From NCBI GenBank assembly GCA_963705255.1, contig OY970061.1, positions 288,001 to 352,000 on the forward strand: a stretch of 64,000 nt of DNA. Reading direction: 5' to 3'. Both the position numbers and the translations under genes were made by a program. The notes beneath the pieces are model-generated. The model searched no databases and was not told the origin of the DNA. It saw only the letters and a program-made list of their open reading frames with translations. This stretch comes from an uncultured Methanoregulaceae archaeon (GTDB lineage Archaea; Halobacteriota; Methanomicrobia; Methanomicrobiales; Methanospirillaceae). Numbering within the stretch: position 1 is the stretch's first letter; each line of letters begins with the position of its first letter. Of the stretch, positions 31,431 through 55,165 are shown piece by piece.

Positions 31431-31537
31431 AATCAAACTCCAACGATAAGATGGGAGAAGCCAGGCCGACCTTCAACTTCGGAGAATTCCGATGCGATAC
31501 GGGGAAGTGATGAAAACGGGGAGTTGACAGCTGCCTG

Positions 31538-34113: not shown

Positions 34114-34138
34114 GTGCAACCCCCAATCCAACGCATCG

Positions 34139-34215: not shown

Positions 34216-34405
34216 TGCCCCCCGCCACACCGGCCCCCCGTCCGGTCCCGCGACATCGACGATCCATGCAACATCCGGGGCCGTTCCGCGGATGCCGGCG
34301 TCAAGCCCTTTCAGGTCCGAGTAATCGAACATGAACCGGTAGAATTCCGCGATCATGTCGGGACGGGTGATCCCGTCGCCCGTATGTGTGGTAATGCCCG
34401 CGTTG

Positions 34406-35701
34406 TCATCGGCTCCCGCTCACGAGCAGCCATTTCCAGAGCGGAATGCAGGTAATTTCCCCGTCCTTTGCCTCGTAATCCTTTGTCAGGACCAGGAGCT
34501 CCTTTATTTTCCCCTCAAAATCTTTGGCAAATTCCCGCAGGCCTTCATATTCACGGTCGGGAATGGTATCGCTGTAACAGACATTGATTGCGGTTAGCCT
34601 GTTGTCATTTGACGTGACGACAAAATCCACTTCACGGGCCCCCTTCCAGTAATACGGCGTCAGGCCGGACCGCATCAGTTCCACAAAGACGAGGTTCTCG
34701 GAGAGTTTTCCCTCGTCTTCGGAGAACCGGAACGAGACCGCGTTGCGGAGCCCGGTGTCGATGCAGTAGATCTTTTTGTTCTGTCGTGCCTGGGCCGGCA
34801 GCGAGTACGCGAATGCCTGCACCTCAAAGAGGATCCTGGCTATGCCGGCAAAGTGGATATAGTCCCTGACCGTGTCGATATCGGTCCCCAGCATCTCATT
34901 AAGGCGGCGGTACCAGTACGGGGAGGCGATGTTCGTGAAGAGATAGTAAAGGAGAGCGGCGAGAGCTTTCTGGTTCCGTACCACGTTCGTCCGGACAATA
35001 TCCCGGTACACGATACTGTCGTAGTATGCCCTGAGATAATCCTGCTTCGTGCGTTCATCCCGCTGGAGTACGACAACGGGAAAACCGCCCTCATGGAGAT
35101 ATTGCCGGAGGTGTGTCGTGATCTCGTATTTTTGTGCCGCACGCGTGGCGGCATCTTTTGGCGGGACGATGTCATGGAACCGGAGGTACTCGGCAAAATC
35201 CAGCGGGAAGACCGGGACGGAGAGGTACCGGCCCGAGAGCAGGGTGGAGACCTGAGAGTCGAGGAGGTACGAGGAGGAGCCGGACAGGATGATTTTGCAG
35301 TGTTTGCGGTCGTAGAGCGATCTGACCTCCCGCTCCCAGTTTTCCACGGCCTGGACCTCGTCAAAGACAAGGTAGATGGTGCCTTTGGCTGCAATCTCCC
35401 TGCGGTACGTGTCGACGGCTTCGGAAAGCGCGTTCTTCCGGCCCGCGACCTCCGGCTCGTCGCAGTTGACAAAGAGGATGTTTTTGGCCGGCACTTTGTT
35501 CGTGGTGATGAGGAGCCGGATGGTCTGGTAGAGCAGGGTGGTCTTTCCCGAGCGGCGGACCCCGCTGAGCACGATGATCTCCCCCGTTTTGAGGTACCGC
35601 CGGATCGTTGCGAGGTACTTCTGCCGCTCCCTGCCGGTATCGAACGGCTGGCCGCTCCACCAGGGGTTCTGGCCTGCGAGGATCTCGAAGAGCGTTGTCA
35701 C
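34406..35701 (-). CDS. AAA_14 ATPase with DUF4143-type C-terminus
   Basis: QNPWW, GVRRSGKTT, FDEVQ, SGSS, GGFP, KKIYCIDTG, ENLVF, EVDFVV. Confidence 0.9.
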   Translation of the reverse strand: MTTLFEILAGQNPWWSGQPFDTGRERQKYLATIRRYLKTGEIIVLSGVRRSGKTTLLYQTIRLLITTNKVPAKNILFVNCDEPEVAGRKNALSEAVDTYRREIAAKGTIYLVFDEVQAVENWEREVRSLYDRKHCKIILSGSSSYLLDSQVSTLLSGRYLSVPVFPLDFAEYLRFHDIVPPKDAATRAAQKYEITTHLRQYLHEGGFPVVVLQRDERTKQDYLRAYYDSIVYRDIVRTNVVRNQKALAALLYYLFTNIASPYWYRRLNEMLGTDIDTVRDYIHFAGIARILFEVQAFAYSLPAQARQNKKIYCIDTGLRNAVSFRFSEDEGKLSENLVFVELMRSGLTPYYWKGAREVDFVVTSNDNRLTAINVCYSDTIPDREYEGLREFAKDFEGKIKELLVLTKDYEAKDGEITCIPLWKWLLVSGSR

Positions 35702-35705
35702 AGTA

Positions 35706-35793
35706 ATGTGTAGGGTTATACCCCTCCATAAATGTTTGGTTGTGATGGGTTATAACCCTACATTTTCCGTTGATTGTGATGGGTTGTAACCTG
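35706..35793. promoter_or_regulatory. Three GGGTTRTA(A)CC palindromic boxes upstream of the AAA ATPase
   Basis: Boxes at 35713, 35747 and 35781 (34-bp spacing); TAGGGTTATA/TATAACCCTA inverted pair. Confidence 0.5.
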
Positions 35794-35800
35794 ACACGTT

Positions 35801-36323
35801 TTACCATGACAAATCCAGGTTCCAGCACTCTTCCAGGATCGGATCGCCCCAGGCATTATTCTCCCGCGTCTCCGTGATCTGGAATCCTTTCCCCGCATAA
35901 AGATGCCGGGCAGCCATGAGGGTACTGAACGTCCAGAGAAACACCCGCCCGTACCTCTTCTCTTTACAGAATTCGACTGCCATATCGAGGAGTGTATGTC
36001 CTGCACCCAGACCTCTCACCCCGGGTTCCAGGAAAAAAAACCGCAGTTGTGCTGTCGCCCCGTCCCCATGGGCAATAGCAACGCACCCCGACGGGACCCC
36101 GTTATGTTCAAGAATATACATGCAGTTCCGGGTGTGGTCAAACTGGTTTACAAAATCATGTACTCCACCGGTGAGGTAAGCCTTCCATATTTCAGAGGTG
36201 AACCCGTATTCCGATGCATACAATACCAGCTGGCGGGATATGACAAAGTCCACGTCGCTCTCCCGGAACGATCTGATGGTGATATCCGGGTCGCCCGGCG
36301 GGCTGTCGTTGTACGGTGTTCAT
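35801..36323 (-). CDS. GNAT acetyltransferase (frameshift near the 5' end)
   Basis: AQLRFFFLEP..RGLGAG..L, LWT...AARHLY...GF; the upstream frame gives ITIRSFRESDVDFV. Confidence 0.85.
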
Positions 36324-36731: not shown

Positions 36732-37496
36732 TCATTTCGGGTACTCGACTCCGGGGTACGTCACCACCGGTGGGTGAACGGGAGGCGTGACGATGGTGAC
36801 TCCCGGGGGGAATTGTATCGTAAACAGGGAATCATTGAGATCCGGATTCACGGTAATGTTCCGATAATCGATCGATTCCGAATTCGTATCGTTATCATAA
36901 AATACCTGCATTTTCACCGGATTCGATGTCGAAACATCCACCCAGATTAAAGCGTCCGAGAATGCATATATGCTGTTATACTTCACAGCAAATTCGCCGG
37001 GACTTCTCGGCCGCATCTCCAGTATACAAAACGTTTTTCCATCCTTATTCTCGCAGGATTTTGTGATTATCTCTGAATCACCGGCAATTTTGTCGGTCAT
37101 CTTCCAGTAATCACCATCAGCCCAGGAGGTCCCGTTTATCCAGTCCTGCTGATCGATGGCCATCTCCATTACCTGGTTTGCTGCAGGCAGGTAATGGAAC
37201 GTCTGGTTTTCCCGGATAATTATTATCGTTCCTGCACCGTATTTCGGGGATTTCTGGAATTCAATCCGTAATTTGTCGGGATATTTCATGCTGATGGTAA
37301 AGACATCCGTCTCGTTTTCTATCCCTGCATACGTTCTTGTTACCTCGGCCGTATAACTCCTGATGGTATGAGCGTGCCGGAAGAAATCCGCTGCAATATT
37401 TTTTCCCGTATCGGAATTGACAGGATTCTCCATGCACCCTGAGAAACAAGATGCGATTAAAAGTATTAAAAAAAATAAAAATATTTTCTCATCCAT
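36732..37496 (-). CDS. Lipoprotein of LolA-like fold (lipoprotein-sorting-like)
   Basis: Lipobox FSGC; KYPDKLRIE, IWVD..T..PVK, IDYRNITVNPDLNDSLFT. Confidence 0.75.
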   Translation of the reverse strand: MDEKIFLFFLILLIASCFSGCMENPVNSDTGKNIAADFFRHAHTIRSYTAEVTRTYAGIENETDVFTISMKYPDKLRIEFQKSPKYGAGTIIIIRENQTFHYLPAANQVMEMAIDQQDWINGTSWADGDYWKMTDKIAGDSEIITKSCENKDGKTFCILEMRPRSPGEFAVKYNSIYAFSDALIWVDVSTSNPVKMQVFYDNDTNSESIDYRNITVNPDLNDSLFTIQFPPGVTIVTPPVHPPVVTYPGVEYPK

Positions 37497-37668
37497 CAAT
37501 CGAGCTCCTTTTCTGGTATTAAGCGACTCCGGATCCGCATTCGTGGGTTGTGACGATTCGTCCGCTGCTCCCACCTAGGGTAACACTAATATTCGGGCCC
37601 GGAGTGGGGCTGCTCTTGTTATGATATAATTTTCAGATTCGTGAATACATGTGTGAACATCAGATTTG

Positions 37669-38700
37669 TTAAACCCGTGTTGGTGTTGTTGCAACCGGTG
37701 GAACCGGTGTGGATTCTTCGTCAATCAACTGATTTCCGGATCGATTCATGGACATTGTTGATGTCTGATTTGTTACATTCGTGTCGGAGTTGTTCCAATT
37801 TGTGGAAACGATGGTGATATCGGGCGTAGTTTGATCCAGTTTCTCCATTGATATACCATCAGAGGACGGGTTTTTCATTGCATCCACAACCAGAGGGAAT
37901 GACTCCGGATCGAATGGTGTGACAGCATAGTAGATCCAGACCGGTTTTATCGAGGGGCTCTTATCCTCCGAATTCCATGCATCGGACAGCTGGTATCCGA
38001 GCGTAATGCCCGCGATCTTTGTGCCTTCCGGGAGCGGACCCTGCAATTGCCGCATAGTGTTATGGTTCTGGAGCTTTTCATAGCCCTGTTCTGCCGATAT
38101 GACCGGCACTTCGCCATTGTATTTGTAGCTCGGCCAGGCCTTCACAATGGTGTCGATCTCCCCGTTCTCTCCAAGACCAAGATTGATCGTTGAACCAATG
38201 ACCGGCGATCCATTGAGAATCTGGATATACCTTACCTGGGTCATCCAGGGGTAATTCTCTTCGGTAGTCTTCGTTGTCAAATTGTACTTTGCTTGGTATC
38301 GTGGTACGGCATCGATCAGCTGTGCATCCTTTGGCAATCCACCGTATTTCAGAAGTGCTTTTTCTGCAAGAGCCGGGGCCTGTGCAGCAGAAGGAATACT
38401 GTTCTTCGGGCTCATGACAATCTTGTCATTACCCTCCTGAACGAGTTCGATGGATGTGATGGTATAGTTCGGGGCGGTGGCGGGAGCTTCTGGAAACGCT
38501 GTCGCAAGAGTAAGTGTTCCGGTTGTCCCCTGGATTTCCGGTATTCCCTTGGTATCATCAAATTTTACCTGACCCGGGGATCCTGTAAAGGAATGAATTC
38601 CCAATTCAGCGGCTCCAATGATCGCAACGCTGCATGCAATTACAATGCCGATAATTATCCAACGTTTATCAAATGCGGCCATGTCCATCACGTCCTCCAT
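37669..38700 (-). CDS. Membrane-anchored extracellular protein (YcdB/PepSY-like repeats)
   Basis: N-terminal TM; 'VISAEQGYEKL...ITLGY...PVWIY...VVDA'; Thr/Asn-rich tail; overlaps the upstream gene. Confidence 0.65.
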   Translation of the reverse strand: MEDVMDMAAFDKRWIIIGIVIACSVAIIGAAELGIHSFTGSPGQVKFDDTKGIPEIQGTTGTLTLATAFPEAPATAPNYTITSIELVQEGNDKIVMSPKNSIPSAAQAPALAEKALLKYGGLPKDAQLIDAVPRYQAKYNLTTKTTEENYPWMTQVRYIQILNGSPVIGSTINLGLGENGEIDTIVKAWPSYKYNGEVPVISAEQGYEKLQNHNTMRQLQGPLPEGTKIAGITLGYQLSDAWNSEDKSPSIKPVWIYYAVTPFDPESFPLVVDAMKNPSSDGISMEKLDQTTPDITIVSTNWNNSDTNVTNQTSTMSMNRSGNQLIDEESTPVPPVATTPTRV

Positions 38701-39425
38701 TCTGCTACGTAAATTGTGTTGTCATCGATCAGTTCACTGCCGGCAACCGTTCCCTGCCCGGGCAGATGGTCATTGTTCAACTGGTCTTGGGTATCGAATA
38801 TGACCCGGGTAAGTGTATTATCGCCCGCTAATACAGTCTGAGTGGCTCGCTGCCATGAATATGCTATTGTGTAGTCATTGTCAATGCAATTCTGTAAAAA
38901 CCTTGATGGGAGATTTGCATTGGCATTCTTAATAGATCCAAACCCGAGGATCCCGTGGGAGAATTTTAGTGCTCCTCCCCACTGGTTATCGAGCAGGGAC
39001 CAGCAGGTATCCAGCACAACCCACTTGTTGGCAGAAATCAGGCTGGTTCCCCATTTTTTATAGACCTCTGCCGAAGTGAGGGATCCTGTTGGCCAGTTGC
39101 TGTACTGGACAATCCCGACCTGGTTTGCATAGTCACCATGACCAAAATGATAGTGGAGATCTGCATCATTGAGTGCTCCGCCATTCGTAGCAAAGTCCGT
39201 GTCATCGACATTGGCATTCGTCTCATAAAACCGCTGTGTCCACCCTTGGCCTGTCAGCCAGTTATACACATAAGCGTGGCTGTTGGTTCCATAGGGATAG
39301 AGACTTGTCAGGGTATTATAATTCTCGACGTTGGTCATCGAGAATTGGTATGCTGACGCGGGCATTGCGATTGCGCACAATGTCACAAGTGCCAGCAATA
39401 TAATACTGGTATTCCTTTCGAGCAT
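38688..39425 (-). CDS. Secreted DUF6345-like protein, putative clan CD (caspase-fold) cysteine peptidase
   Basis: Signal peptide (..AMPASA); DLHYHFGHG and WVVLDTC His-Gly/Cys motifs; HGILGF. Confidence 0.6.
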   Translation of the reverse strand: MLERNTSIILLALVTLCAIAMPASAYQFSMTNVENYNTLTSLYPYGTNSHAYVYNWLTGQGWTQRFYETNANVDDTDFATNGGALNDADLHYHFGHGDYANQVGIVQYSNWPTGSLTSAEVYKKWGTSLISANKWVVLDTCWSLLDNQWGGALKFSHGILGFGSIKNANANLPSRFLQNCIDNDYTIAYSWQRATQTVLAGDNTLTRVIFDTQDQLNNDHLPGQGTVAGSELIDDNTIYVAEWRT

Positions 39426-39450
39426 TTTCGTCCATCTCCTTTTGCAGTTA

Positions 39451-39720
39451 CGCTTCGCTCGAAGGCACGGGAAAACCTTCATAGGAACGGAAGATAATGA
39501 TCACATGCCTACGGGCGGGACCGGGTTCAGCCGCAATTTGACCTGAGGCGGACCCGTCCTTTCTTTTCGGGACAACCCCCGGCTGTCCGCAATGAGCGAT
39601 TTATAATTTGTGCATTTATTCTTTCTAACGCATTCATCTACAGGTCGAAGTGCTGAAAAACAAATGAAAAATTACGGAGCGAAAAAATGCAAATAGAATT
39701 ACCAGAATCAGGCTGAATTT
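39451..39720 (-). promoter_or_regulatory. Conserved promoter plus structured 5' leader, copy 1
   Basis: Homologous to 42458-42730 and 49294-49565; BRE/TATA-like AGAAAGAATAAAT on the minus strand. Confidence 0.8.
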
Positions 39721-39889
39721 TGCGATCGCCGGCGGTTGCCAAACGGTTGGCGATCGCCCGGAGTTTGCTGCCCCCTCGCAAGTACAAGGCTAAGGCCTTC
39801 CGCTCCGGCACCGGCCCCGGGCTTGGCACGCGAATCACCGGCGCCCGGCACCCCCCGGGCCACGATACTGCCCCCGGCCCCGTCCGGCA

Positions 39890-39965
39890 CTACACTCTGT
39901 GGCATTCCCCGCCAACCCCGCACTCCGGCCACCCCCCACCGCCCGCGAACGAAGGGGGTGGGCAT
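39890..39965. repeat. C-rich repeat D, second copy at ~43767-43845
   Basis: GTGGCATTCCCC...CCCCGCACTCCGGCCACCCCCC.CCGCCCGCGAAC.AAGGGGGTGGGCAT in both places. Confidence 0.85.
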
Positions 39966-40635
39966 CCCTCCCTCAGGCAGGAGCCAGGCCCCGACCGCCC
40001 CTGCAAGAACAGGCCAGGCATCCCGGCTCCAGCACTAACCCGAATATCCAAAAAGAGTGAATACTCGGTTAACCAAAATTTATTTACCTAACCGCCCAGC
40101 CCTAGCCTCAGAAAATTCAACCGGCCCGACCGCTCACGCTCAAAATTTTTCAAATCCGACAGGTCATCAGACCTGGAGAAGGAGAAGAAACCTTCAGGTT
40201 TCTTCGGACACGACCCCCACTACCCACACTCAAAATTTTTCAAACGCCTCTCGATCGCGATTGCGAGCGTGAAAAATCTCCATGGGAAACAAAGGTCGTT
40301 CAGACGTGAATGGTCTCCGGATTTGTGGGACGATCGCATTTGAAAAAAATAAATTGCGATCTGGATCGCGTTCAAAATTTTTTCATCGCGATCATGATCG
40401 CGATCGATCAAAGTTAAACAGATCCTAGACAACGGGGCGAGCGACCCCAGCTGGTACCAGTTCCTTGGTGGTACTACCCCCTTCCGGAATGCCCCCTGTA
40501 TATTAGTGCAGATCCGGACTCATGCAAAATACCCGTGATGGGTATCTTACCCGGCCGGAGCACCTGACCTGTCACGGGTTGTTTACCCATCACAGGTTAC
40601 ATGACCCGCATCGCCTAGCCCCTCCCGAAGAGTCT

Positions 40636-41217
40636 TCATCGTATGTCAATCGCAATCCGGCTCACATTCCCGGCAACCGGGTCGAGATCGAACCGGACGA
40701 ATATCTCCGTCGAATTCACACGCTGGTATCCGTAGAGCGCCGGGGGATACGCAACGGTCTCGTTCTTCCGGAGCGGCCGCTCCTGACCGGAAATGCCAAT
40801 GAGGCCCCCGCCGGATCTGAGAAATTCCCTGACACAAATGTCATCAAGTGCGATTTTCACCAGCCTTGTACGATCGGCACCGGGATAATTCACCGGGATT
40901 GCGGTATAATCCGCAGATTTGGGATTGTCAGGATTGCTGATTGTGTAGGTTTCAGGAGGAGCCGGCAATTCTTTAACCGATCCCGGTTTCGCAGGAATCT
41001 GTGTCAGTATTGGTGGACAGGAAGAGCTGGCAGCAGGGATACCGGGTGTGGGTGGTACCGGGGAGGTCTGGATCACGGTGGGCGTTATGAGGATATCCGG
41101 ACCGGTAGGTGACGGGGTGGTTCCAGCCGGTGTTGTCGAATGAACTGTGTTGTTTGCACATCCGGTGATACCAACGATAAAAAAAAGGAAGATAATGGGA
41201 AGGAATACCTGCCGCAA
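40636..41217 (-). CDS. Hypothetical lipoprotein with Pro/Thr linker
   Basis: Lipobox ITGC, P/T-rich linker, small C-terminal domain; 12 bp downstream of the secreted protein gene. Confidence 0.7.
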   Translation of the reverse strand: MRQVFLPIIFLFFIVGITGCANNTVHSTTPAGTTPSPTGPDILITPTVIQTSPVPPTPGIPAASSSCPPILTQIPAKPGSVKELPAPPETYTISNPDNPKSADYTAIPVNYPGADRTRLVKIALDDICVREFLRSGGGLIGISGQERPLRKNETVAYPPALYGYQRVNSTEIFVRFDLDPVAGNVSRIAIDIR

Positions 41218-41229
41218 ATCTGTTCACCC

Positions 41230-42438
41230 CTAATTTGCTGTATCCAGCCTGACAACACTTGGATTTGTAAGTATTTCTACATTCAGCTGGGTCAGAGGAG
41301 CGGACGGGAAAATATAGCGTTTCAGAACGATGGGCTCCGTCTGGCCGCTCGACTGGTATACCATATTGGTAAACAGGGTATCACCGGGCACATCATTATC
41401 GCTGGTGATATTCTTTCCTTCGAGTGCCATGCTTTCTTCCAGACTCGTGCTTGAGGGTGATGACATCCAGGTCGTAGTCAGGCTCGTCGAACTCCCGGCT
41501 GTGGTATCATAGGTCGTGATGTACCATGCCTGCGTGGAGGAACTCCACTGCATCTGTCCTCTGATCGTATGGCCGGTGGAGACCGTTATTCGCGTGCTGT
41601 GGAAACTGTTTGTCCCTCTTACTGCCCAGCTGGCGATATCCCAATAATATCCGGTATCGATGTTATTCCATTCCAGTACCGGCTGGATGATCGCACGGTA
41701 TGCCGGATAATCTTCGATCGAGTTAAAGAGGAATATCGTCTTTGCAGCGGATCCGGTACCCGACCTAGAAACAGGAGATGCAGGGACATTCCAGTAACCA
41801 TCAAACAAGGTAAGCGGCAGGGAAGTTGTTGTACGGTCGTAGGCGTATTCGATCCAACCATAGAATGGAGTGGTCAGAGGAACGACACTTGACGTTGAGA
41901 CTTGATCTACCAGGGATTGTCCTTTGGCATCTGAATTCGTAAAGGCATCTTCATTAATCACAGTACAGATAACTTGGTTTTCGTAAATGACAAATGTCTT
42001 TTTCCCATTATCCGTGATGAATGCACCCGAAGGCACTTCAAAGACGTGAGACGCAGGGGAAGGGCCTTTCGGTGTGTTGATTATGCCGGAAGCTTTGTCA
42101 TTCACTTCGAAAATCTGTTTTCCTTTCTTATCGAAAACGCGTGTGATACCATCGTTCGAATGGTGAATAACAGCACCTGAAGGGACAGAGAATTTACCAT
42201 CGCCCTGATGGGTGATAACGGAAGATTCCCTGTCATCATTTGTCAAAAGGAATTCGCCGTTCATGACACCGGGCGTTTTTGAATAATCAAACTGAAGTGA
42301 TGGAATGGGAATTTTTTCCAGTTCAGCCAGCTTCCCGGGTTCTGGGATGGAAGACCCGTCAGCGCTCACCAGCGGTACCATCGCCATCGCTGCCAGCAGC
42401 AGTGCCAGCAGGACGACGCTCCATGTGCGTAGTTGCAT
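41230..42438 (-). CDS. Secreted protein: pro-region plus beta-rich C-terminal domain, possibly glutamic-peptidase (G1/neprosin)-like
   Basis: Signal peptide; 'WNVPASP', 'IFLFNSIE', 'IIQPVLEW' and 'MALEG' (Gln/Glu dyad candidates). Confidence 0.6.
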   Translation of the reverse strand: MQLRTWSVVLLALLLAAMAMVPLVSADGSSIPEPGKLAELEKIPIPSLQFDYSKTPGVMNGEFLLTNDDRESSVITHQGDGKFSVPSGAVIHHSNDGITRVFDKKGKQIFEVNDKASGIINTPKGPSPASHVFEVPSGAFITDNGKKTFVIYENQVICTVINEDAFTNSDAKGQSLVDQVSTSSVVPLTTPFYGWIEYAYDRTTTSLPLTLFDGYWNVPASPVSRSGTGSAAKTIFLFNSIEDYPAYRAIIQPVLEWNNIDTGYYWDIASWAVRGTNSFHSTRITVSTGHTIRGQMQWSSSTQAWYITTYDTTAGSSTSLTTTWMSSPSSTSLEESMALEGKNITSDNDVPGDTLFTNMVYQSSGQTEPIVLKRYIFPSAPLTQLNVEILTNPSVVRLDTAN

Positions 42439-42457
42439 TTCTTATACCTCCTTTCAT

Positions 42458-42730
42458 ACGCTACGCTCGCAAGGCACGGGAAAACCTTCATAGGATCGGA
42501 AGATAATGATCTCATGCCTACGGGCGGGACCGGGTCCAACGAAGTTCGTCGCTTGGTGGACCCGTCCTTTCTTTTCGGGACAACCCCCGGCTGTCCACGT
42601 ATGAGCGATTTATATTTCGTATATTTATTCTTTCTAGCCCATTCATCTACCGGTCAGGTTACAAAAAAACAAATGAAAAATTACTGAACGACAAAACGCA
42701 AATAGAATTATCTGAATTTGTTCAATTCTT
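42458..42730 (-). promoter_or_regulatory. Conserved promoter plus structured 5' leader, copy 2
   Basis: TATA-like element at ~42621-42635; predicted TSS ~42597; AGGAGGT RBS before ATG 42438. Confidence 0.8.
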
Positions 42731-42886
42731 GCGTTCGCCGGCTGATCCCAAACGGTTGGCGATCGCCCGGAGTTTGCTGCCCCCCCTTGCAAGTACAAGG
42801 CTGAGGCCCGTCCGACCCGGCACCGCCACCGGGCTGTATGTGTCCGTTCTTCGAACCACCAGAAAAAAGTTGATTAAATGTTTGAT

Positions 42887-43240
42887 TCACAGGATTTTGG
42901 ATTTCTCATGTTCAATTATAACGGCAATTTCTTTCTTCAACACCGGGATCTTGTGCTCAATGATATCCCAGAGGATCTCCAGGTCAACACCGAAATACCC
43001 GTGGATCAGGGTATCCCGGAATCCGGCAACAGATTTCCAGTCTGTAGCAGGAAACTGTGACTTCAGATCATCGCTTAAGTTCTTGACGGCTTCGCCGATG
43101 ACCTCGAAATTGCGAACAACCGCATCGACCCGCATCCGATCGTTTTTAAACTCCCCGAATGTCAGGTCACCAACATACGACAGGATATTCCCGACAACCT
43201 CCGAAATATCATTGAGATAGAGCAGCTGGGACCTATGCAT
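42887..43240 (-). CDS. HepT-like (DUF86) HEPN RNase toxin
   Basis: AVVRNFEVIGEA, W...AGFRDTLIHGYF. Confidence 0.9.
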   Translation of the reverse strand: MHRSQLLYLNDISEVVGNILSYVGDLTFGEFKNDRMRVDAVVRNFEVIGEAVKNLSDDLKSQFPATDWKSVAGFRDTLIHGYFGVDLEILWDIIEHKIPVLKKEIAVIIEHEKSKIL

Positions 43241-43517
43241 AGACAACGTCCTGCAGGATGGGATCGCGGATGAGGGGTTTGAGGGCAGCATCCGTCACCA
43301 GATCAACTTTCCGTTTGAAGAGGTCTTCGAGATAGAATTTTGTTCCCATAAAATTATCAAAGGTTTTTTTGCCATTCTGGAATGTGACGAGGATATCCAC
43401 ATCGCTGTCCATCCGCTCCTCTCCGCGTGCGAACGAGCCGAAGATGCCGATCTTCGCGACACCGAACCGGGCCTTCAGTTCCGGTTCATGCTGTCGGAGG
43501 AGTGCGAGTACGTCCAT
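43233..43517 (-). CDS. MNT (MntA-like) nucleotidyltransferase antitoxin
   Basis: IFGSFARGE...SDVDILV, KVDLVT. Confidence 0.92.
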   Translation of the reverse strand: MDVLALLRQHEPELKARFGVAKIGIFGSFARGEERMDSDVDILVTFQNGKKTFDNFMGTKFYLEDLFKRKVDLVTDAALKPLIRDPILQDVVYA

Positions 43518-43961
43518 ACAATTCCTGTATGTGAGTGGTTGGTCTGTTCTTATTATTAATGCATTGACGATGCAGAGATTTTTATTCATGGAGTTTTCCA
43601 ATTTCTTCAGCCCCCGGTTCATTAGCCACGCGATCACCGGCTCGTGCCAAATGGCCGTGCATTCACCGGCCCTGGCTGCCCCTTGCAAGAACCGGCCCAG
43701 GCCCCGTTTGCCCCATCATCGGCTCCCGGCCCCGCCACGCGATCTCCGGCCCGGCACCCACCCGGCCACTACTCTCAGTGGCATTCCCCACCTCCCCCGC
43801 ACTCCGGCCACCCCCCGCCGCCCGCGAACAAAGGGGGTGGGCATGTATCAGCACGAGCCATGGCCCCGCCGGTTCAGAATTCTGCCAGGGCTCCCCCCTT
43901 GACATTGACCACACCCTTATTGTACTGGAATCACCAAACACCATACTAAGAACGTGAACGC

Positions 43962-44285
43962 ATGCCCGAACTCGTCACACCGCTCAGGCAAAAAAGTCCT
44001 GTCATAAAAAAACTGGAAGCAGCAGCCCCGGCTATCCGCTCGCAGTTCGGAGTAACCAGGATCGGCATCTTCGGCTCGTTCGCCCGCGGCGAGCAGACCC
44101 GGAAGAGCGATGTGGACGTGCTCGTGGATTTTGCCGAAGGGTATGCAACCCTGAAAAACTTTGTCGGGCTTGCCGATCGCCTTGAAGCGCTCTTCAGGCG
44201 GAAAGTGGATCTCATCACGGTCGAGGGGGTTGACAAGTATATCCGCCCGGGAGTCGAGGCTGAGGTGATCTGGGTTGAAGGATGA
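43962..44285 (+). CDS. MNT nucleotidyltransferase antitoxin
   Basis: IFGSFARGEQ..SDVDVLV, KVDLIT. Confidence 0.92.
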   Translation: MPELVTPLRQKSPVIKKLEAAAPAIRSQFGVTRIGIFGSFARGEQTRKSDVDVLVDFAEGYATLKNFVGLADRLEALFRRKVDLITVEGVDKYIRPGVEAEVIWVEG

Positions 44286-44625
44286 CACGGTCTACCTCCG
44301 CCACATCCTTGACGAGATCCTTTTCCTGAAACGGATATCGCACGACCGGACTCTTGACGAGCTCATCAATGATGACTATTTTGCTCATGCGGTCCGGAGC
44401 GCGATCGAAGTAATCGGGGAAGCAGCAAAAAACGTACCCGACCGGATCAAAAAAGAAAGCCCGGAAATACCGTGGCGGGAGATGGCAGCACTTCGCAACC
44501 GGATCATTCACGGCTATTTCAGGATCGATTATTCCATTGTCTGGAATGTGATCGTCCAGGATCTCCCGGAGATTGAACCAAAAATTTCTGCACTTCTCCA
44601 GAGACTGGATGGCAGATCCGGATAA
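44275..44625 (+). CDS. HepT-like (DUF86) HEPN RNase toxin
   Basis: IEVIGEAAK, IPW...LRNRIIHGYF. Confidence 0.9.
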   Translation: MKDDTVYLRHILDEILFLKRISHDRTLDELINDDYFAHAVRSAIEVIGEAAKNVPDRIKKESPEIPWREMAALRNRIIHGYFRIDYSIVWNVIVQDLPEIEPKISALLQRLDGRSG

Positions 44626-44711
44626 CCGGGATGTGCTTCCGGAATGAATACAACATGTATTCAATTGAGTAAAAATGTATTCACCGGCAGGTCCGGGAAA
44701 GAGGAGGGAAG

Positions 44712-45362
44712 ATGCCAGAGAAATTTCATACCGAACTGAACCGGTTGAAAGAGGACATGCTGGACCTGGCCCGCTTTTCCAGGAATATGCTGTGCGACTC
44801 ACTCAAAGCCCTGACAACGGAAGATATCGAAGCAGCAAAGGAGGTCGCATCCCGTAAACGACATATCCAGGAGACGATGATCGAGCTCGAGGAACGGACA
44901 TACCAGCTGATTGCCCTCTACCAGCCGATGGCAAAGGATATGCGGGAGATCGCCTGCATGCTCAAGATCATCTCTTCGGCAGAACGGATCGGGAGATACG
45001 GCAAGGATATTGCAAACATGGTCAAGCGTGTCAAGGGCCAGCCCGAGTTTGTCCAGCCGCTCCCGATCGTCCATATGGCCGGGCTGGTTGAAGCGATGAT
45101 CAATGATGCCATCCGTGCGTTTGAAACCGAGAGCACCGGGCCCATCAAGGATTTCTCGACGCGCGACGATACCGTTGACTCGTTGTGGCATTCGATCCTC
45201 CGGGAGACGCTCACCTTCATGATGGAGAACCCGAAGACGATCACCCGGGGGACCTATTATGTCATGGTCGCACGGTATCTCGAACGGTCGGGCGACCATG
45301 CCTGCAAGATGGCAGAGAACGTCAATTACCTGGTGACCGGGGAACGGATCGAGATCAGATAA
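44712..45362 (+). CDS. phoU: Phosphate signalling protein PhoU
   Basis: IALYQPMAKDMR, AERIGRY, DDTVD, LERSGDHA. Confidence 0.92.
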   Translation: MPEKFHTELNRLKEDMLDLARFSRNMLCDSLKALTTEDIEAAKEVASRKRHIQETMIELEERTYQLIALYQPMAKDMREIACMLKIISSAERIGRYGKDIANMVKRVKGQPEFVQPLPIVHMAGLVEAMINDAIRAFETESTGPIKDFSTRDDTVDSLWHSILRETLTFMMENPKTITRGTYYVMVARYLERSGDHACKMAENVNYLVTGERIEIR

Positions 45363-45974
45363 TCCTTTACGTGCTTTGAAACCCGCTGGGAACCTCGTGC
45401 AGCCTGCATCGCAGACTTCAGTTTCTGCTCCAGCACTTCGCGGGGCGGGAGATCGGTAAGGTATTCAGAGACATGAATCCCGGATTTGTCGAGTTGCAGG
45501 AGACGGATCTGTTTCTGGTCCGCACCAGCACAAAGGATCAATCCAAGAGGTTGTTCCTCGCACGCTTCTTTCTCGTTCTGCTCAAGCAACCGGAGGTACA
45601 GTTCCATCTGTCCCTTGTATGCCCCATGATTAACAGTAGGATCGGGGTCCTCGATTCCAACATAGACTTCTTTTATCCGTGCAAGAACAATTCGCTCAGC
45701 GCAGCTGATTTTTGGATCATGCCGGGCTCCAGGAGCACAAGGCTCCAGAGTTGTAAAAAGAATGGAATTGTCCAGTAGGTTGCCCTGGTTTTTTCTTTCC
45801 AGGAGAGTATATTCCGCGTGATCACCATCGCGCGCCGCGATATGCCGCTTCAGTAGTACCGTCCGCTTTGTAAACAACCGCTCCTACTAATGGAGCCTCT
45901 TTGCCGTCCCGACGAGGCTCGTGCTCCGTATCTTTCATGGCGGAGATTGCCATCTCCATCAGGGGATTTTTCAC
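45326..45974 (-). pseudogene. Chimeric remnant: zinc-dependent deaminase N-domain fused to a DUF1016-like C-terminus
   Basis: PLVGAV..., HAE, TTLEPC...C, DPDP (deaminase), then GQMELYL...PLGLILC...IHVSEYLTDLP (DUF1016); frameshift at ~45832. Confidence 0.65.
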
Positions 45975-46013
45975 AAATCCACCTCCGTCATATTTTCGAA
46001 TTGAAATGGTGCA

Positions 46014-47854
46014 TCAATTCCCCTTCCTCCGCATGATTATTATACCGGCACATGCCCCTCCAATAATGGCGAGCCAGATTGAAATCGGCGTGGTTTGAGG
46101 GGTTGCCAACTTCTCATAAGAAATGACCTGAGTTCTTTCAGGTTCGGAATTCGTTGCATTACCCTCCCTGTTGAAGTAGTAAACATGCTTCAGAGATGTG
46201 GCGGCGAGATAGTTCCCCTCTCCTGATAGCTTCAGCCCTGTCATCCATTCGGGACTTGAATACTGCCAGAGTGGTTTTCCGGTGCTGTTAAATAAAACGA
46301 TTTTGTCGGAAATCCCTGCACCAGTAAATTGACCATCGCTTGAGAGGGAAATACTGGTAATCCATTCGTTATTCGTATGAGTCAGGGGATTGATATTCTC
46401 ATAACGCCACTCAGGCAATCCGGTCCGGTTGAATACGCTAAGATAGTATTGTGAACCTGCGGCAGCATGGTTTCCATCTGATGAGACAGAAACTGATTTA
46501 AATTGAGGTCCGCTGGTAAAATTCCATTGAGTCCGACCATCCCGGGAAAATACGAACAGTGTATGGTCGTCAATCACCGCATCAAGTTCTCCATCGTTTG
46601 AAACCCCGATTCCCGCAACAGCAGTTTCTACGGGGGATGTGAACAAGACAGTGCCATCATTGTCAATAACAGAAATCTTTCCCGGTATGCCCCGGTATCC
46701 TGCTACCACGCACGTGGACCCGTCTCCCGATACACTCATTAAACCGACCGGTTCTGAAAGATTGACCTTCGCTACGACAATTCCCTCTTTATTAATGATG
46801 GAAAGATCATTGTCCCACGAAGCGTACACATAATTTCCATCATCCGATGTCGCGATCGCCCGTAAAGTTCCATCGGGTATGAATTTCCAGATGATCGATC
46901 CGTTCCGATCGAATCGTATGATACTGCTCACGCTCTGCGGAGGACTCGGGGAGTCATAATAATATGCAGCCGTGACAAGACTTCCGTCGTTGGTGATTTT
47001 GACGTACCCGACAGGCTTTCCTGGCACCTGGTATGTCCAGAGGATGGCTCCACTGTTGTCATAAAGCCTGACAATTCCCATGTCGGATCCTGCCACAACA
47101 TAGTGCCCGTCATCAGAACACGAAGCTTAAAACACCTCCAAAGCCCAAGGAGTCTGACCAGATCGGTAGCGGAGACGTCGTTGAATTCGATCCATTACGA
47201 TAGATAGTAATGTTCCTCTTGAGAGATAACTCCCAGTACGGGTAGTAGTCCAGCTGCCCTCCTACCGGAGGATTGGTGTCGATGGGGAATGGACCTGCTT
47301 CGTATCCGGAAGTTGTTCGCAGTATAGTCACTGAACTTGGGATTGACTCCCCATCTCCCGGAACCTCAAGAGAAAACTCTGAATCACGAATAGAGTACCC
47401 CTTTGAAATTCCGTCGATGTATACTTCAGCTCCGTCTTCAGGCCAGTGTATGACATATCTTCGGGTCGAAGAATTTGACTGAGAATCGGGCTGCCGGATC
47501 TGGATCAGCTGAGGGTATACATCCTGGAATCCTCCGGACGGTGAGGAGGCGGGGAGGGTATCGGAGAAAACGGTGGTATTTCCAATAACAATGGAGTACT
47601 GATGTTCTTTAGATAAGATCCGGTCGTTTGCAGCAACAGTGAGAGCATTTTTTTCAATATTGCCTACAAAAATGTCATCGATATACACGCAGTACCTCTC
47701 CGTTCACCGGCCAGTGGATGATATAGTATCCCGTTACATTGGCGGAAGAACTGGAAATTCCTGATTGTGTATTTGTTCCCATTGCCCCCGAAATAAGTAT
47801 ACCGAACAAAAAAGAAATGAAAAATACCAGAATCCAGAATTTTGTTTTTTTCAT
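46014..47854 (-). CDS. Cell-surface protein: signal peptide, two PEGA-like domains, WD40/PQQ-like beta-propeller, C-terminal TM plus basic tail; two frameshifts (~47690, ~47125)
   Basis: MKKTKFWILVFF...; (A)EVYIDG repeats; SxDG...W propeller blades; ...PISIWLAIIGG...MRRKGN sorting-signal-like end. Confidence 0.7.
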
Positions 47855-47908
47855 TTGCTACTCCTTTATTTTTTATTGTAATATGTTTTTACAAAAAAAG
47901 TTGAATGC

Positions 47909-49276
47909 CTATAGGCGATAAATGAAGCTCGCCGATGGCTGGAAATCTTCCCAATAAACATTGTTCGATGCTGAGTCTGAGTAATATACTTTTTGTACAC
48001 CATTCCGTGAATCAAAACCATAACACGCTCTTGCGTGACCACTTGGCTTTGTCGGATTTATGTGTCCCGGGAGAGTAACGGTTTTCAAGGGGTACCCAAA
48101 TCCAATACTATTGGAAATTTCATAATAATACGGATTTCTTGACTGACGACCCCACGGACCAACGCCAATTCCTCCATTTAAATAGTCAGAATAATACTGG
48201 AATTCAGCATCTGCTGAGGGTGCCCCGGCATAGCCACTGAGATTAACCACTCCCATCTTTGTTGCTATCTGATTTGGAGTCTTTCCCTGTGAGATGATTC
48301 CTTTTATCCGGTAATATTCTGTCATTGACCAGGCAGCGAAAATCATGCACCAGTCTCTTGCTCCCTGATACTGGACCAGCTGAGGGCTTAGAACTCCATA
48401 GTTTGAGGAGGCAGCAAACCCTGACAAAATTGTGGTTTTTAACGATTCGGAGTTTTCATTTGAGGTTCCAAGATTGATGCTGATTTTCTGTGCGTTCATT
48501 TTTTCAGCAATTTTCAGGGCTGTAATTTTGTCAGTTACTTTGTTTATCCGGTCATTTTCTTTGTTCCAGAGCCCAATCCCCGATTGAGTATTTGCCTGAG
48601 GGATTGTGTCATAGTAGGAAAATTCTCTCTCCTTGCCTTGGGGAATTTCCTGATAATCTTTGAATATCGCATCAATCACAATTTTTTTGTTTTCCTTAGT
48701 TTGTGGATTCGTCAGTTCCGCCAGTAGTGCAAGATACGGACTATCGTAGCAGATCAATTTTGTAGACTGAATGGTGTATCCCGTGAAATTTGTCTTCACA
48801 ATTTCATTTGCCTTCATCACAAGACCGGGAACATCAATTTCCTGTGGCGAACTCGTCCCGACATATTTTATCGGCGAGCCAAGGACTTTACTTGCTGCAA
48901 CCCTGATCTTTCCGATTTTCTCACCATTTTTCTCGATCCAGAATTGGTAGAAAATTCTCTCTCCATTTAAGTCATAAATGGTGAGTGGTTCCGGATTGAG
49001 ATTTGCACCATCCCAATTGATAGAATCCCCCATAGTTTTCAGGGTGATTGTCTCGGCAAGCGATTCTGTCGCAAAATTCGTCGCAGTCTCAACTGAGATG
49101 TAATTTGCTGAAATCGATTCTTTTGAGACTGGCGGATTTATTACGGCCGAAGAAAGTGGGTCAGCCACTACAGCATTTTTGTTATATGTATCCGCACTCA
49201 CTATCGGTACCATCGCCATCGCTGCCAGCAGAAGTGCCAGCAGGACGACGCCAAATTTCAGTATTTTCATTTTCAC
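47909..49276 (-). CDS. Secreted protein with N-terminal pro-domain and C-terminal C39/papain-like cysteine peptidase domain
   Basis: Signal peptide; Q..DWC..AA and GHARACYGFD...YYSD (Q-C-H-D pattern). Confidence 0.7.
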   Translation of the reverse strand: MKMKILKFGVVLLALLLAAMAMVPIVSADTYNKNAVVADPLSSAVINPPVSKESISANYISVETATNFATESLAETITLKTMGDSINWDGANLNPEPLTIYDLNGERIFYQFWIEKNGEKIGKIRVAASKVLGSPIKYVGTSSPQEIDVPGLVMKANEIVKTNFTGYTIQSTKLICYDSPYLALLAELTNPQTKENKKIVIDAIFKDYQEIPQGKEREFSYYDTIPQANTQSGIGLWNKENDRINKVTDKITALKIAEKMNAQKISINLGTSNENSESLKTTILSGFAASSNYGVLSPQLVQYQGARDWCMIFAAWSMTEYYRIKGIISQGKTPNQIATKMGVVNLSGYAGAPSADAEFQYYSDYLNGGIGVGPWGRQSRNPYYYEISNSIGFGYPLKTVTLPGHINPTKPSGHARACYGFDSRNGVQKVYYSDSASNNVYWEDFQPSASFIYRL

Positions 49277-49293
49277 TTCCTCCTTTTTTCGAT

Positions 49294-49565
49294 ACGCTCC
49301 GCTCGGAAGGCACGGGATAAAATTTCATTTGGGAGAGGGAATTGTCACGCGCCTACGGGCGGGACCGGGTCTAACGAAGTTCGTCGCTTGGTGGACCCGT
49401 CCTTTCTTTTCGGGACAACCCCCGGCTGTCCACGTATGAGCGATTTATATTTCGTATATTTATTCTTTCTAGCCCAATCATCTACCGATCAGGTTACAAA
49501 AAAACAAATGAAAAATTACTGAACGACAAAACGCAAATAGAATTACCAGAATCTGCTGAATTCCT
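49294..49565 (-). promoter_or_regulatory. Conserved promoter plus structured 5' leader, copy 3
   Basis: Near-identical to copy 2 over ~190 bp; the third stem has a different interior but keeps the AGGC..GCCT closure. Confidence 0.8.
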
Positions 49566-49684
49566 GCGATCACCGGCTCGTGCCAAACAGCCGTGCATGA
49601 ACCGGCATCCGGCTGCCTCCTGCGAGTACCCCCGGGCCCCCGACACCCGGCAACTCAAAAGGATGATAACCAGAATAAAAAAAC

Positions 49685-49930
49685 CTATTGCCTGACGCAG
49701 AAGTGCCCGATGACGAGACTGTGCTTCGTATAGAGTTCGCAGGCCGGACAATAGCAGTTCAGCTCTTTCGGTGACGGGGCCGATGTTGTTCCGCGTGCGC
49801 AGAAGAGTGCGTCGGGCTGATATCGCTCAAGGGAATTATGTTTGTAGGTCGGGCATGCCCTGCAGGTATTCCTGCAGATCTGCCGGTTCTCTTCCGTATC
49901 CTCCACAATAGTCGTGTCGGTTTTCATCAT
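49685..49930 (-). CDS. DUF2769-type Cys-rich small protein
   Basis: C..CPTY...LFCARG...CYCPAC...HFC. Confidence 0.8.
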   Translation of the reverse strand: MMKTDTTIVEDTEENRQICRNTCRACPTYKHNSLERYQPDALFCARGTTSAPSPKELNCYCPACELYTKHSLVIGHFCVRQ

Positions 49931-50068
49931 AATGAGTGGATAGTGCGATGATGGATAATAGGCTTCTTGTAGATCGTTCCGGTTTTTACGGGAAAAAATC
50001 CTGGCCGCTCATTATCCTTCCGCCCTCCGGCTCCTGCCGAACGCTCCGCTCTCCGGAGACCGGATGCC

Positions 50069-53425: not shown

Positions 53426-55165
53426 CTAATCGATCCTCTGAATCCTCCCGTCAACCGTCACGTTCACCGGTTGCGGCAACGACCCCACATAGGTAACAAG
53501 TGAATCGACATCGACCGGCCCGTAGGTCGTGTTCGTTCCTTCCTCAAACGTCGTGTACCCGTCACCGCCCATGGCAAGGTACCCGACCGTGGAAACGGTG
53601 TAGCTCGCATTTGCGTCCAGCGGGACACCGTGTATCGTTACCGCAGTCACCTTGCTGCCTGCAGGTTTTGCTGCATCATAGGTATACACAAGTCCCGAGA
53701 CGACGAGATTGCTCGGGGGGAGCGGTTGCTGCCACTGCTGTTCAAGGGCCTGCCGGATCTGAATACCTGACAGGGTCATTGACAGGACCGTCCCGGCCAG
53801 GCTGGGCAGCATACAGGTCGTTCCAGGTAATAGTTCCCCGTGACAGGTCTGAAAAAATGTCGGCGGAAGTATCAAATCCCACGTCTGTATTCATCGCGGC
53901 CCGCTCCCCGTCCGCAACCAGATCTCCCATCGCCGATTCCCCGGCACGGTCCTGGTCCCGGGTAATATTCAGGGCGGCAACGCCGATCGTCCGGTTCTCG
54001 ACCGGAGCAACGGCATTCTGGGCCGCTGCAAGGAGCGCAGCGGCAGCGGGATCCGGGCTGGTGACGGGAGGCTGGTCCGCATATGCCGGGATAATCCGTG
54101 CGGATTTCCCCACGATCTCCCCGCTCGCCCTGTCGATGGTGAGATCGACATCTGCATACCCCCTGCTGTACATGTACGCCTGCGTGACGAGCACGGGTTT
54201 TCCGCCGGCATTGGCCAGGTAGGCGTTGGTAAACTCATGGGTATGGGCGGACAGCACGACGTCGACAGCCGGGTCGAGCCGGGGAATAATTGCGGTCACC
54301 CGCCCGCTCACGTTTCCGTTCGCCCGCGTGGGGCCGTCATAAGGAGTCTGGTTCCCGCCTTCGTGAAGCAGGACAATGATCGCATGCACACCCTGTTTCT
54401 GAATCTCCGGAATATACCGGTTTATGGAATCGGCTTCGTCGAGAAAGGTCACCCCTTCGACATTGGCAGCGTTCGTGAGCTGGGGGGTGGTCATCGTATC
54501 TGCACCGATGAACGCAATCGTCACCCCGCTGACATTTCGCAGGGTATAGGGCGGGAGGACGGGAGTGTTGTTGGCTGTCCAGACCACATTTGCGCAGACA
54601 TAGCCGATTCTCGTGCCGGGTACGGATCGACGAGGTGGGTGATATTCGTCGCCCCATCCCCCCCGTTTATCTTTCTCATCAGTTCCGGTATCCCGTTATT
54701 GAACTCCTGGTTGCCCAGCGTTGCAACCATATTACAGGAGACATTCGGGGAGTTCGATCCGACGGTACAGTACTGGTTTGCAAAGCTGTTGAAGAACAGC
54801 ATCGTCGGCTCGTCAAGGAGCAGCCCGGATACGGGAGGCGATGACCCGACCACATCCCCGGGCAGGGCGATGATGGTGCCATCTGCATTCCCGGACGCCA
54901 TCGCCGATTTGAGGTAGGAGGCCAGTACCGGGGCACCCCCGACGGGGCGGTTGTTCAGGGTCTGCCCCGGGGGCATGTGCCCGTGGAAATCGTTTACCGC
55001 GAGAATTTTTACATGGACGGTCGCGTTGGTATGCGGTGCCTGGGCAGGCCCGGAAAGATACCCTGAAAGGAAAATCGGTGCCAGTATGAGAACACAGAGA
55101 ACGCAGAACCCCAGGAGAATCTGTAGCTTGATCGGGATCCTGTCCCACCGGAAGTCGGGTGCCAT
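53426..55165 (-). CDS. Bifunctional metallophosphatase/5'-nucleotidase, split over three frames
   Basis: VNDFHG, GDVVG, LGNQEF, LLHEG, SAHTH, ESAMGDLVAD, YLAMGGDGY. Confidence 0.88.

Follow-up and report, generated by a model that had tools for sequence, protein, structure and literature searches.

A structured 5′ leader family, coupled to promoter and signal peptide, before unrelated exported-protein genes of a methanogen order

Why do unrelated secreted-protein operons of one archaeon open with almost the same DNA? The question is raised by a 64,000-nucleotide (nt) stretch of an uncultured Methanoregulaceae archaeon (GenBank assembly GCA_963705255.1, contig OY970061.1, positions 288,001 to 352,000), hereafter called the window, in which an earlier note had pointed out a conserved, structured leader RNA repeated before three such operons. 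The genome searched in this study comprises 2,600,650 bp in one contig (C1) with 54.6% G+C, the window being C1:288001-352000. We describe here a previously undescribed structured 5′ leader family found across a methanogen order; its archaeal hosts, its many copies, its coupling to a signal peptide and the unrelated cargo behind it make it unusual. That the leader is a selected RNA structure of the sense strand, in leader position, is very probable.

The three blocks of the window are found where they had been reported, each of them on the minus strand. Their alignment has 433 columns with a mean column identity of 86%, and the copies show 84-89% identity to one another over about 300 nt, always on the gene strand. 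A repeat finder returns them as a single three-copy family (39496-39744, 42505-42753 and 49340-49588), and a BLAST-type genome search gives the window copies E values of 2.1e-166, 6.6e-109 and 2.5e-86, far above chance. The features named before are all present, namely the AGAAAGAATAAAT box, hairpin 1 (GGACAGCC-GGG-GGTTGTCC) and hairpins 2 and 3, as are the differing interiors of hairpin 2 in copy 1 and of hairpin 3 in copy 3. The three genes are unrelated secreted-protein genes as claimed, the mature parts giving best mutual blastp E values of 2 or more. Each block does lie directly before a start codon, but the repeat does not end there; it extends about 75 nt into coding sequence because the three genes open with nearly one signal peptide (repeat D14). 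Two CAAAT/AATTA-like boxes further upstream are common to the window copies but absent from the five other copies in the genome.

The conserved leader, put at about 160 nt in the earlier note, is thus part of a larger unit that runs from the promoter through a near-identical signal peptide. Its order from 5′ to 3′ is a TATA promoter, a leader of about 145 nt (stem-loop P1, A-rich linker, P2, P3), a Shine-Dalgarno sequence (SD), an ATG and a signal peptide of about 26 amino acids (aa). For copy 2, from which the structure was derived, the parts are as follows.

42621-42650, minus strand: promoter with upstream GTAGAYGA motif and BRE-like (B recognition element) CAGAAA/TAGAAA, here GTAGATGA...CTAGAAAG, and TATA-like box AATAAATAT (regular-expression match, genome 330621-330650; column conserved in the multi-genome alignment)
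42459-42601, minus strand: leader RNA, from a covariance-model match of 158.9 bits, fold and covariation
42598-42577, minus strand: P1, 8-10 bp with a variable loop of 3-5 nt
42576-42568, minus strand: purine-rich (A-rich) linker
42567-42527, minus strand: P2, GGACGGGUYC...GRACCCGGUCC, with one bulge and a variable apical stem
42526-42464, minus strand: P3, a compound hairpin with outer, middle and apical stems
42361-42458, minus strand: A-rich spacer, SD AAAGGAGG, ATG at 42438-42436 and signal-peptide codons MQLRTWSVVLLALLLAAMAMVPLVSA
41230-42438, minus strand: first gene, a 402-aa secreted protein without Pfam family, in the largest cargo group

The outer stem of P3 is CGCCCG/CGAGCG, its middle stem GGCAUG/CRUGCC and its apical stem AUCUUC/GAAGGU, followed by UUUU; in the class of copies called B below the outer stem is GCCCG/CGGGU instead. 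The most conserved stretch of the leader, yGCCCGnAGGCAUG, lies in and around the P2/P3 junction.

Concerning the fold, 88 of the 92 distinct copies were aligned with MAFFT, the four with a divergent-looking 5′ part being left out, and the structure of copy 2 was then transferred to the alignment; this projection biases the percentage of paired cells, not the counts of double-sided changes. In this unfitted alignment 86.8% of the cells form standard pairs, as compared to 26-51% after sliding of the 3′ partners by one to three columns, and 30 of the 45 pairs show double-sided change versus 15.7 ± 2.3 after shuffling, with 0 of 500 shuffles reaching the observed number. A covariance model built from the MAFFT alignment realigned 103 matches of 100 loci, including 23 divergent ones. 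After this fitting 88.2% of the cells pair (37-46% when slid), double-sided change is seen in 38 of 45 pairs (22.4 ± 2.3 shuffled; again none of 500 shuffles), and the covariation score is 0.239, versus 0.133 shuffled and 0.04-0.07 slid. RNAalifold on the plain MAFFT alignment returned only P1 (6 pairs), P2 and P3 being missed because the gappy alignment hid them.

Individual pairs illustrate the exchange. In P2, pair 71-116 is UA in 65 copies, CG in 19 and UG in 8, and pair 74-112 is AU in 69, CG in 9, GU in 9 and GC in 3; in P1, pair 11-36 is GU in 52, AU in 20, GC in 5 and CG and UA in 3 each. In some copies P1 or the interior of P2 is exchanged for an unrelated yet pairing sequence, and the three-domain fold recurs in divergent members. 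The earlier reading of a conserved structured RNA is supported to this extent: the element is strand-specific, backed by covariation and found at a fixed position between TATA box and SD. The strand follows from the wobble pairs: G.U makes up 10.3% of the cells and A.C, which is G.U of the opposite strand, 3.5%, so that it is the sense strand that folds.

The element had not been recognised as a known family, and the covariance models of Rfam 15 agree. There is no match in the window at gathering thresholds, none among 4227 models at E ≤ 1 in 39000-50000, and for the five other loci of the same genome only a chance microRNA match (E 0.77). Likewise, full-text searches of the open literature brought up no account of the leader.

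How widely is the unit distributed, and what does it precede? BLAST, nhmmer and the covariance model agree on eight full copies in the genome (the next covariance match has E 0.07). All genome sets beyond it are samples, in which absence means that none was found among the genomes searched. In the family, 47 of 200 other genomes have matches, 43 of them among the 80 genomes of the same genus and four from other genera; within a positive genome the copies are usually several and close together. Across the order, the covariance model matches 24 of 151 genomes in five of six families (12/29, 2/20, 4/12, 2/30, 3/30 and 0/29 for families f1 to f6), and one genome (G050) has at least 21 copies in co-oriented arrays spaced 2-5 kb. 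In other families the structure is kept although matches reach only 25-75 bits and sequence identity is low. An origin from viruses was considered and rejected, the P1 motif having no exact match in the viral contig collection.

About 125 loci were gathered, and nhmmer gave 105 matches, 93 of them full length and all 93 oriented towards the downstream gene. In class A (75 of 93) a signal-peptide-like open reading frame (ORF) starts 125-215 nt from the start of P1. Class B (13 of 93) has an extended leader and then an 89-aa ORF. The remaining five comprise two copies with recognisable but disrupted signal-peptide codons, two without evident gene and one with the class B extension whose ORF is not in range. 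In the genome under study four copies belong to class A (the three of the window and C1:2462812; leader, then SD, ATG and signal peptide) and four to class B (C1:1757606, 2057933, 2456456 and 2467582).

The cargo is diverse. A Pfam scan of 82 downstream proteins, many of them incomplete at locus ends, assigned 8 to Peptidase_C39_2, 3 to reprolysin-like metallopeptidases, 2 to the transglutaminase core and 2 to DUF6345, leaving 67 without family. Without their first 32 residues, 81 cargo proteins fall into 21 single-linkage blastp groups (sizes 18, 14, 14, 5, 5, 4, 3, four pairs and ten singletons), several of which cross taxonomic families. The class A signal peptide has the consensus M.LRK.SVVLLALLLAAMAMVPMVSA, read from the alignments, and by eye shows a Sec-type build with basic n-region, hydrophobic h-region and a c-region of small residues (V-S-A). 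A hairpin CUGCUGGC/GCUGGCAG is predicted inside these codons; it may merely reflect repeated Leu and Ala codons. Of the most divergent copies (23, at 25-76 bits, from other genera and families), 18 stop 12-25 nt short of the SD and ATG of a signal-peptide-like ORF with a hydrophobic N-terminus of quite different sequence, two more lie 120-150 nt away and three are without such an ORF. The link between leader and export therefore predates the near-identical signal peptide of the genus.

Class B departs from this pattern. Here promoter and leader are as in class A, but in the genome a further 150-180 nt of conserved non-coding sequence separate them from the small ORF, giving a 5′ untranslated region (UTR) of about 330 nt. 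The 89-aa protein encoded by this ORF is conserved, with 36 invariant residues in 13 copies, and has no signal peptide. The element is therefore not specific to secreted proteins: in class B it heads a gene for a cytosolic, non-secreted one. The second gene of class B encodes a protein of 132-186 aa, for which Atlas gives a lead to Hjc/Mrr-like nucleases. Two of the four class B loci are 92-99% identical over about 2.8 kb, which points to a multi-copy unit resembling a mobile element. The 89-aa family has members in 93 of 201 genomes of the family. It was considered as an obligate trans-acting factor of the leader and rejected, being also present in leader-negative genomes and missing from several leader-positive ones. 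An AbrB-like guess for this protein was not borne out either, there being no Pfam, PHROG or Atlas match; its comparison with PDB sequences gave nothing better than E 0.29, and its AF2 (AlphaFold2) model is weak, with a predicted local distance difference test score (pLDDT) of 59, one helix and a beta-hairpin.

Where would the transcript begin? From the TATA-like octamer to the first paired G of P1 the spacing has its mode at 20-24 nt, as given by a crude scorer that at times chooses a neighbouring AT-rich word. In PMC5378194, differential RNA sequencing (dRNA-seq) of another methanogen places BRE/TATA 19-22 nt from the transcription start site (TSS) in 81.6% of primary transcripts. Taking both together, the start would lie 0-6 nt before P1, making P1 a 5′-terminal stem-loop. 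This position, as predicted from the spacing, agrees with the start near 42597 guessed before. Among public sequencing runs, a search for RNA data covering 41900-42900 listed none. The motif GTAGAYGA...CAGAAA...TATA recurs upstream across genomes, including copies of other families. Its strict pattern occurs 10 times in the genome versus 2-5 times in random Markov genomes; four matches are at leader copies and at least three at leader-less promoters (C1:1729568, 2451873 and 2466375). Given this common promoter motif, the idea of a regulon is plausible. On the opposite strand of the class A copy C1:2462812 (L040) two genes are found (C1:2461396-2462685), the nearer one starting just upstream of the promoter; they encode a secreted protein with PPC domain and a membrane-anchored winged-helix regulator resembling HVO_0163. 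The winged-helix protein might act on the common promoter as a local transcription factor.

At the other end of the leader the translation start appears accessible. In the consensus fold the unpaired probability is 0.55 for the SD and 0.54 for the AUG versus 0.37 for the leader body. No conserved pairing that masks SD or AUG was seen in the consensus fold of this region, so that an SD-masking switch was rejected, and no alternative structure of the leader was found. A closing helix P0, between the 5′ flank of P1 and ...AGCGUAUG... after P3, was tried and rejected as well, the cognate duplexes (mean -4.42 kcal/mol) being no better than non-cognate ones (-4.26 kcal/mol; 215 of 1000 permutations equal it). 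Without SD masking and closing helix no switch is seen. The reading as a cis-regulatory RNA is thus supported as to a structured, strand-specific leader, and less so as to regulation by switching. An upstream ORF at the conserved AUGs of P3 was rejected, the first AUG lying in a covarying stem and being lost in copy 3. In a leader sub-lineage of relatives (loci L013, L017, L019, L021, L043, L045 and L049) an extra small hairpin, CGCAU-GGAAAA-AUGCG, lies between P3 and SD.

We consider the element, somewhat more probably than its alternatives taken together, to be a cis-acting structured mRNA leader inside a portable cassette of promoter, leader and signal peptide that would serve stabilised, uniform and co-regulated expression; the stabilising, uniform-expression mechanism specifically is put forward more tentatively. 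In such a scheme the mRNA would start with the stable 5′-terminal stem-loop P1, which together with the compact fold would protect the 5′ end and stabilise the message. An A-rich single strand would follow P1, then P2 and P3 and an open A-rich stretch presenting SD and AUG. The constant leader and signal-peptide codons would offer an equal context of translation initiation and export to any cargo, and the promoter motif and leader core (yGCCCGnAGGCAUG and the GGG/CCC of P2) might provide a common handle for co-regulation, the leader itself acting in cis and constitutively. Long 5′ UTRs are reported to stabilise methanogen mRNAs (PMC5378194 and PMC5499594).

Several points weigh against this reading. 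A single leader folds only modestly better than its shuffles (copy 2, -58.8 kcal/mol, z = -1.9; 5 of 200 shuffles fold equally well), so the case for the fold rests on comparing copies. These are related and partly homogenised, which makes significance against shuffles look greater than it is; the model-fitted alignment is drawn towards the structure of its own model and includes two spurious partial reverse-strand rows; and the apical P2 and two outer P3 pairs form in only 45-75% of the cells. A second AT-rich box closer to P1 in some copies could put the TSS within P1. That transcription starts before P1, that the leader exists as RNA, that it affects half-life and that a trans-acting factor reads it are all inferred. 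Stabilisation leaves the elaborate, conserved P2 and P3 unexplained, and this elaboration keeps a protein-, small RNA (sRNA)- or ligand-responsive function as the main rival.

The module itself also bears signs of exchange, which weigh on the same side. Median identity in 400 random pairs of 68 class A copies is 0.57 in the distal upstream part, 0.60 in the promoter, 0.77 in the leader and 0.78 in the signal-peptide codons; over the next 420 nt, the mature protein, it is 0.60 versus 0.58-0.60 shuffled, so the similarity falls to background where the mature protein begins and the module has sharp edges. The synonymous sites of the signal peptide are frozen, with a codon homozygosity of 0.73 versus 0.32 from genome codon usage in the 58 of 68 copies placeable in register, and rare codons are fixed (GTA 94% versus 12% in the genome, AGT 65% versus 8%). 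A maximum-likelihood tree of leader and signal peptide (66 rows, 29 genomes, 17 cargo groups, about 240 columns, poorly resolved) is unrelated to the cargo group (43 changes versus 43.7 shuffled) and partly follows the genome (47 versus 56.7, lowest shuffle 53). Sharp edges, frozen codons and a cargo-independent tree together show that paralogous operons exchange or homogenise their 5′ module, whatever it drives. Such exchange accounts for part of the sequence identity, as recombination alone keeps much similar; it leaves the compensatory changes, the strand asymmetry and the survival of the fold in other families unexplained.

Which explanation fits best? A sensing or regulatory RNA, either riboswitch-like or a binding site for a protein or sRNA that switches the gene set, possibly with premature termination at the U-tract of P3, is unlikely, though several points favour it: the elaborate build, the near-invariant nucleotides around the P2/P3 junction and the UUUU conserved directly after apical P3, a conservation that spans families even where the signal peptide diverged, and the regulon-like occurrence in many copies before functionally related genes. 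Neither conserved alternative pairing nor SD masking was seen, however, and no expression platform was found; the closing helix that a riboswitch-like junction would have is unsupported by the permutations above, no Rfam riboswitch matches, and the cargo, with 67 of 82 proteins without family, hints at no common ligand. A U4 tract is short for archaeal termination, and the UUUU after the apical P3 hairpin is a possible, weak attenuation point. One form of this idea, also unlikely in our judgement and slightly the more so, is that the leader serves as RNA operator for a secretome regulon in archaea, its invariant P2/P3 core being recognised by a trans-acting protein, sRNA or small ligand. If true, tens of mRNAs for exported proteins would have their stability, translation or membrane-proximal localisation set together, the same handle would have been captured by the mobile-element-like class B operon, and this would be the first order-wide, multi-gene control at the RNA level described in methanogens.

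The remaining explanations place the signal in the DNA or in a separate gene. That a cassette of promoter and signal peptide was spread or homogenised by recombination or gene conversion, its hairpins being incidental or serving recombination, is quite improbable as a full account; sharp boundaries, frozen synonymous sites with their rare codons, the cargo-independent and partly genome-following tree and the co-oriented arrays within variable, defence-rich islands all fit it, and promoter reuse is a published concept (PMC3575422). Against it stand the 30-38 compensatory pairs of 45, which homogenisation does not create, pairing that outlives sequence replacement, the G.U asymmetry marking the sense strand, and the structure kept in other families at 25-75 bits despite low identity. 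A scan of 46 ORFs of the window also revealed no domain of a recombinase, integrase or transposase. An independent sRNA gene of about 145 nt, lying upstream of genes by chance, would suit the compact fold with its own TATA box and the additional 150-180 nt that separate the class B leader from the next ORF. This is very improbable, since no T-run terminator follows P3, A-rich spacer and SD come within 12-25 nt in class A, a same-strand ORF stands immediately after 75 of 93 copies, and no second promoter is evident, on reading the sequence, between leader and ATG. A miniature inverted-repeat transposable element (MITE) or integron attC-like recombination site was suggested by the multiple hairpin-rich copies in co-oriented cassette arrays and variable islands, and was rejected with hardly any probability left to it. 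The orientation of copies relative to genes, named in the earlier note as the check that would tell, is far from random (93 of 93 agree); the three window copies have no terminal inverted repeats in common; the unit, with promoter, SD and start codon inside it, reaches into the ORF; folding is sense-strand specific; and the searches for integrase and transposase domains in the 46 scanned window ORFs and for exact P1 motifs in the viral contig collection were negative.

Returning to the cis-acting leader cassette, the two other copies of the window are laid out like copy 2 and head operons of their own.

39614-39641, minus strand: copy 1, promoter motif and TATA-like box (regular-expression match, genome 327614-327641)
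39451-39593, minus strand: copy 1, leader RNA (144.6 bits), the interior of P2 swapped for a different, still pairing sequence
39348-39450, minus strand: copy 1, spacer, SD, ATG at 39425-39423 and a diverged signal peptide
38688-39425, minus strand: copy 1, first gene, a DUF6345 secreted protein
37669-38700 and 36732-37574, minus strand: copy 1, next ORFs of the operon, 343 aa and LolA-like, respectively
49456-49485, minus strand: copy 3, promoter motif and TATA-like box (regular-expression match, genome 337456-337485)
49295-49436, minus strand: copy 3, leader RNA (117.0 bits), the interior of P3 differing and its outer stem kept via GGCGCG/CGUGCC
49193-49294, minus strand: copy 3, spacer, SD AAGGAGG, probable ATG at 49270-49268 and signal-peptide codons MKILKFGVVLLALLLAAMAMVPIVSA
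47909-49270, minus strand: copy 3, first gene, a secreted Peptidase_C39_2-like protein
47113-47688 and 46014-47096: copy 3, following ORFs of the operon, 191 aa and PQQ-like beta-propeller, respectively
34140-34213, 39724-39797, 42733-42806, 43630-43670 and 49566-49606: GC-rich palindromic repeat GCGATCGCCGG...CCAAACGG...GGCGATCGCC

The palindromic repeat stands just upstream of each leader promoter of the window and in two other places; it could be a terminator of the upstream gene. A 78-nt repeat rich in C-runs (91% identity) lies at 39888-39965, upstream of copy 1, and at 43767-43844, near a HepT/MNT nucleotidyltransferase toxin-antitoxin pair (42887-43688) that is found between copies 2 and 3. 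A 183-aa ORF at 45326-45877 combines a cytidine-deaminase-like region with a C-terminal piece of a YhcG PD-(D/E)XK nuclease.

The secreted-protein operons adjoin a defence-type island (22019-36253) with a DNA methylase fragment, a BsaWI-like endonuclease, a Cas4/PD-(D/E)XK nuclease and a Piwi-domain ORF of 217 aa, which is short for an Argonaute. The island also contains a reverse transcriptase (27961-29547) and KilA-N, PIN, AAA_14/DUF4143 and GNAT genes. Duplicated segments of 140-184 nt with 82-94% identity, at 29991-30437 and 32538-33122 around KilA-N and at 17463-17762 and 21059-21319, point to recent local duplication. Four tandem units of 57-61 nt, each with a hairpin GAAGGATTCTGATGAATCCTTC, occupy 19152-19392. 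Further downstream (53426-54587) the C-terminal domain of a 5′-nucleotidase is split across the overlapping ORFs 53426-53875 and 53742-54587, which may be a frameshifted gene.

To our knowledge the list of cis-acting structured RNAs from archaea is very short, and we know of none on it that is common to a large set of exported-protein genes. The leader is represented by about 100 sequenced copies, covaries clearly and has cultured hosts within the genus, and so offers a directly testable entry to archaeal post-transcriptional control and opens the topics of mRNA 5′-end protection, leader-binding factors and co-regulation of the secretome. The cassette is a natural insulated module for expression and secretion, and thus a potential genetic part for Methanomicrobiales, for which we know of no such tools. 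Its decoupling from the cargo illustrates how new secreted proteins plug into an existing expression context.

Among known systems, mobile promoters were surveyed by Nijveen, Matus-Garcia and van Passel in 2012 as sequences at least 80% similar over at least 50 nt upstream of non-homologous genes in one genome, some of which the authors regard as regulatory RNAs (PMC3575422). The cassette shows just this, at least 80% identity over at least 50 nt before non-paralogous genes, with the reservation that its similarity also enters coding sequence, which that survey excluded. The survey covered only positions -150 to -50, reported no structure and named no such archaeal case. Long leaders as such are common in methanogens: according to a dRNA-seq study of Methanolobus psychrophilus (PMC5378194) and a study of mRNA processing (PMC5499594), leaders of at least 150 nt are frequent and linked to mRNA stability and translation. 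Those are gene-specific, and the passages of the two papers considered here describe no single leader family that tens of genes have in common across an order.

The cis-regulatory families of Rfam (riboswitches, ribosomal-protein leaders and the L7Ae K-turn leader) are likewise 5′ UTR structures with covariation; unlike them, the present leader matches no model and has no expression platform that we could find, and no K-turn-like tandem G.A pairs were seen on reading the fold of copy 2. As to function, the nearest analogue of the leader would be the ompA type of 5′ stem-loop stabiliser. The 5′ UTR of E. coli ompA reportedly carries a 5′-terminal stem-loop that stabilises the mRNA of an exported envelope protein. 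Both would have a 5′-end hairpin (in the archaeal leader an inferred one), a single-stranded A-rich segment, a further hairpin and an accessible SD. They differ in that there is no sequence relation, that the archaeal leader occurs in 8 to more than 21 copies per genome, has three conserved domains and is tied to a conserved signal peptide, and that archaeal and bacterial decay machineries are different; for the archaeal leader, stabilisation is a proposed effect.

In the logic of the gene family, again by analogy, the closest resemblance is to the 5′ modules of variable surface proteins in Mycoplasma. The vsp, vlp and vsa surface lipoprotein genes have a conserved 5′ non-coding region and signal peptide, for which we know of no conserved RNA fold. 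As in the archaeal case, a constant module of promoter, 5′ UTR and signal peptide is set on divergent mature proteins, and the genes are clustered and recombine. The Mycoplasma proteins are bacterial lipoproteins varied by site-specific inversion or repeat slippage, whereas the archaeal cargo consists of non-homologous, enzyme-like proteins and the fold of the leader in front of them appears to be under selection.

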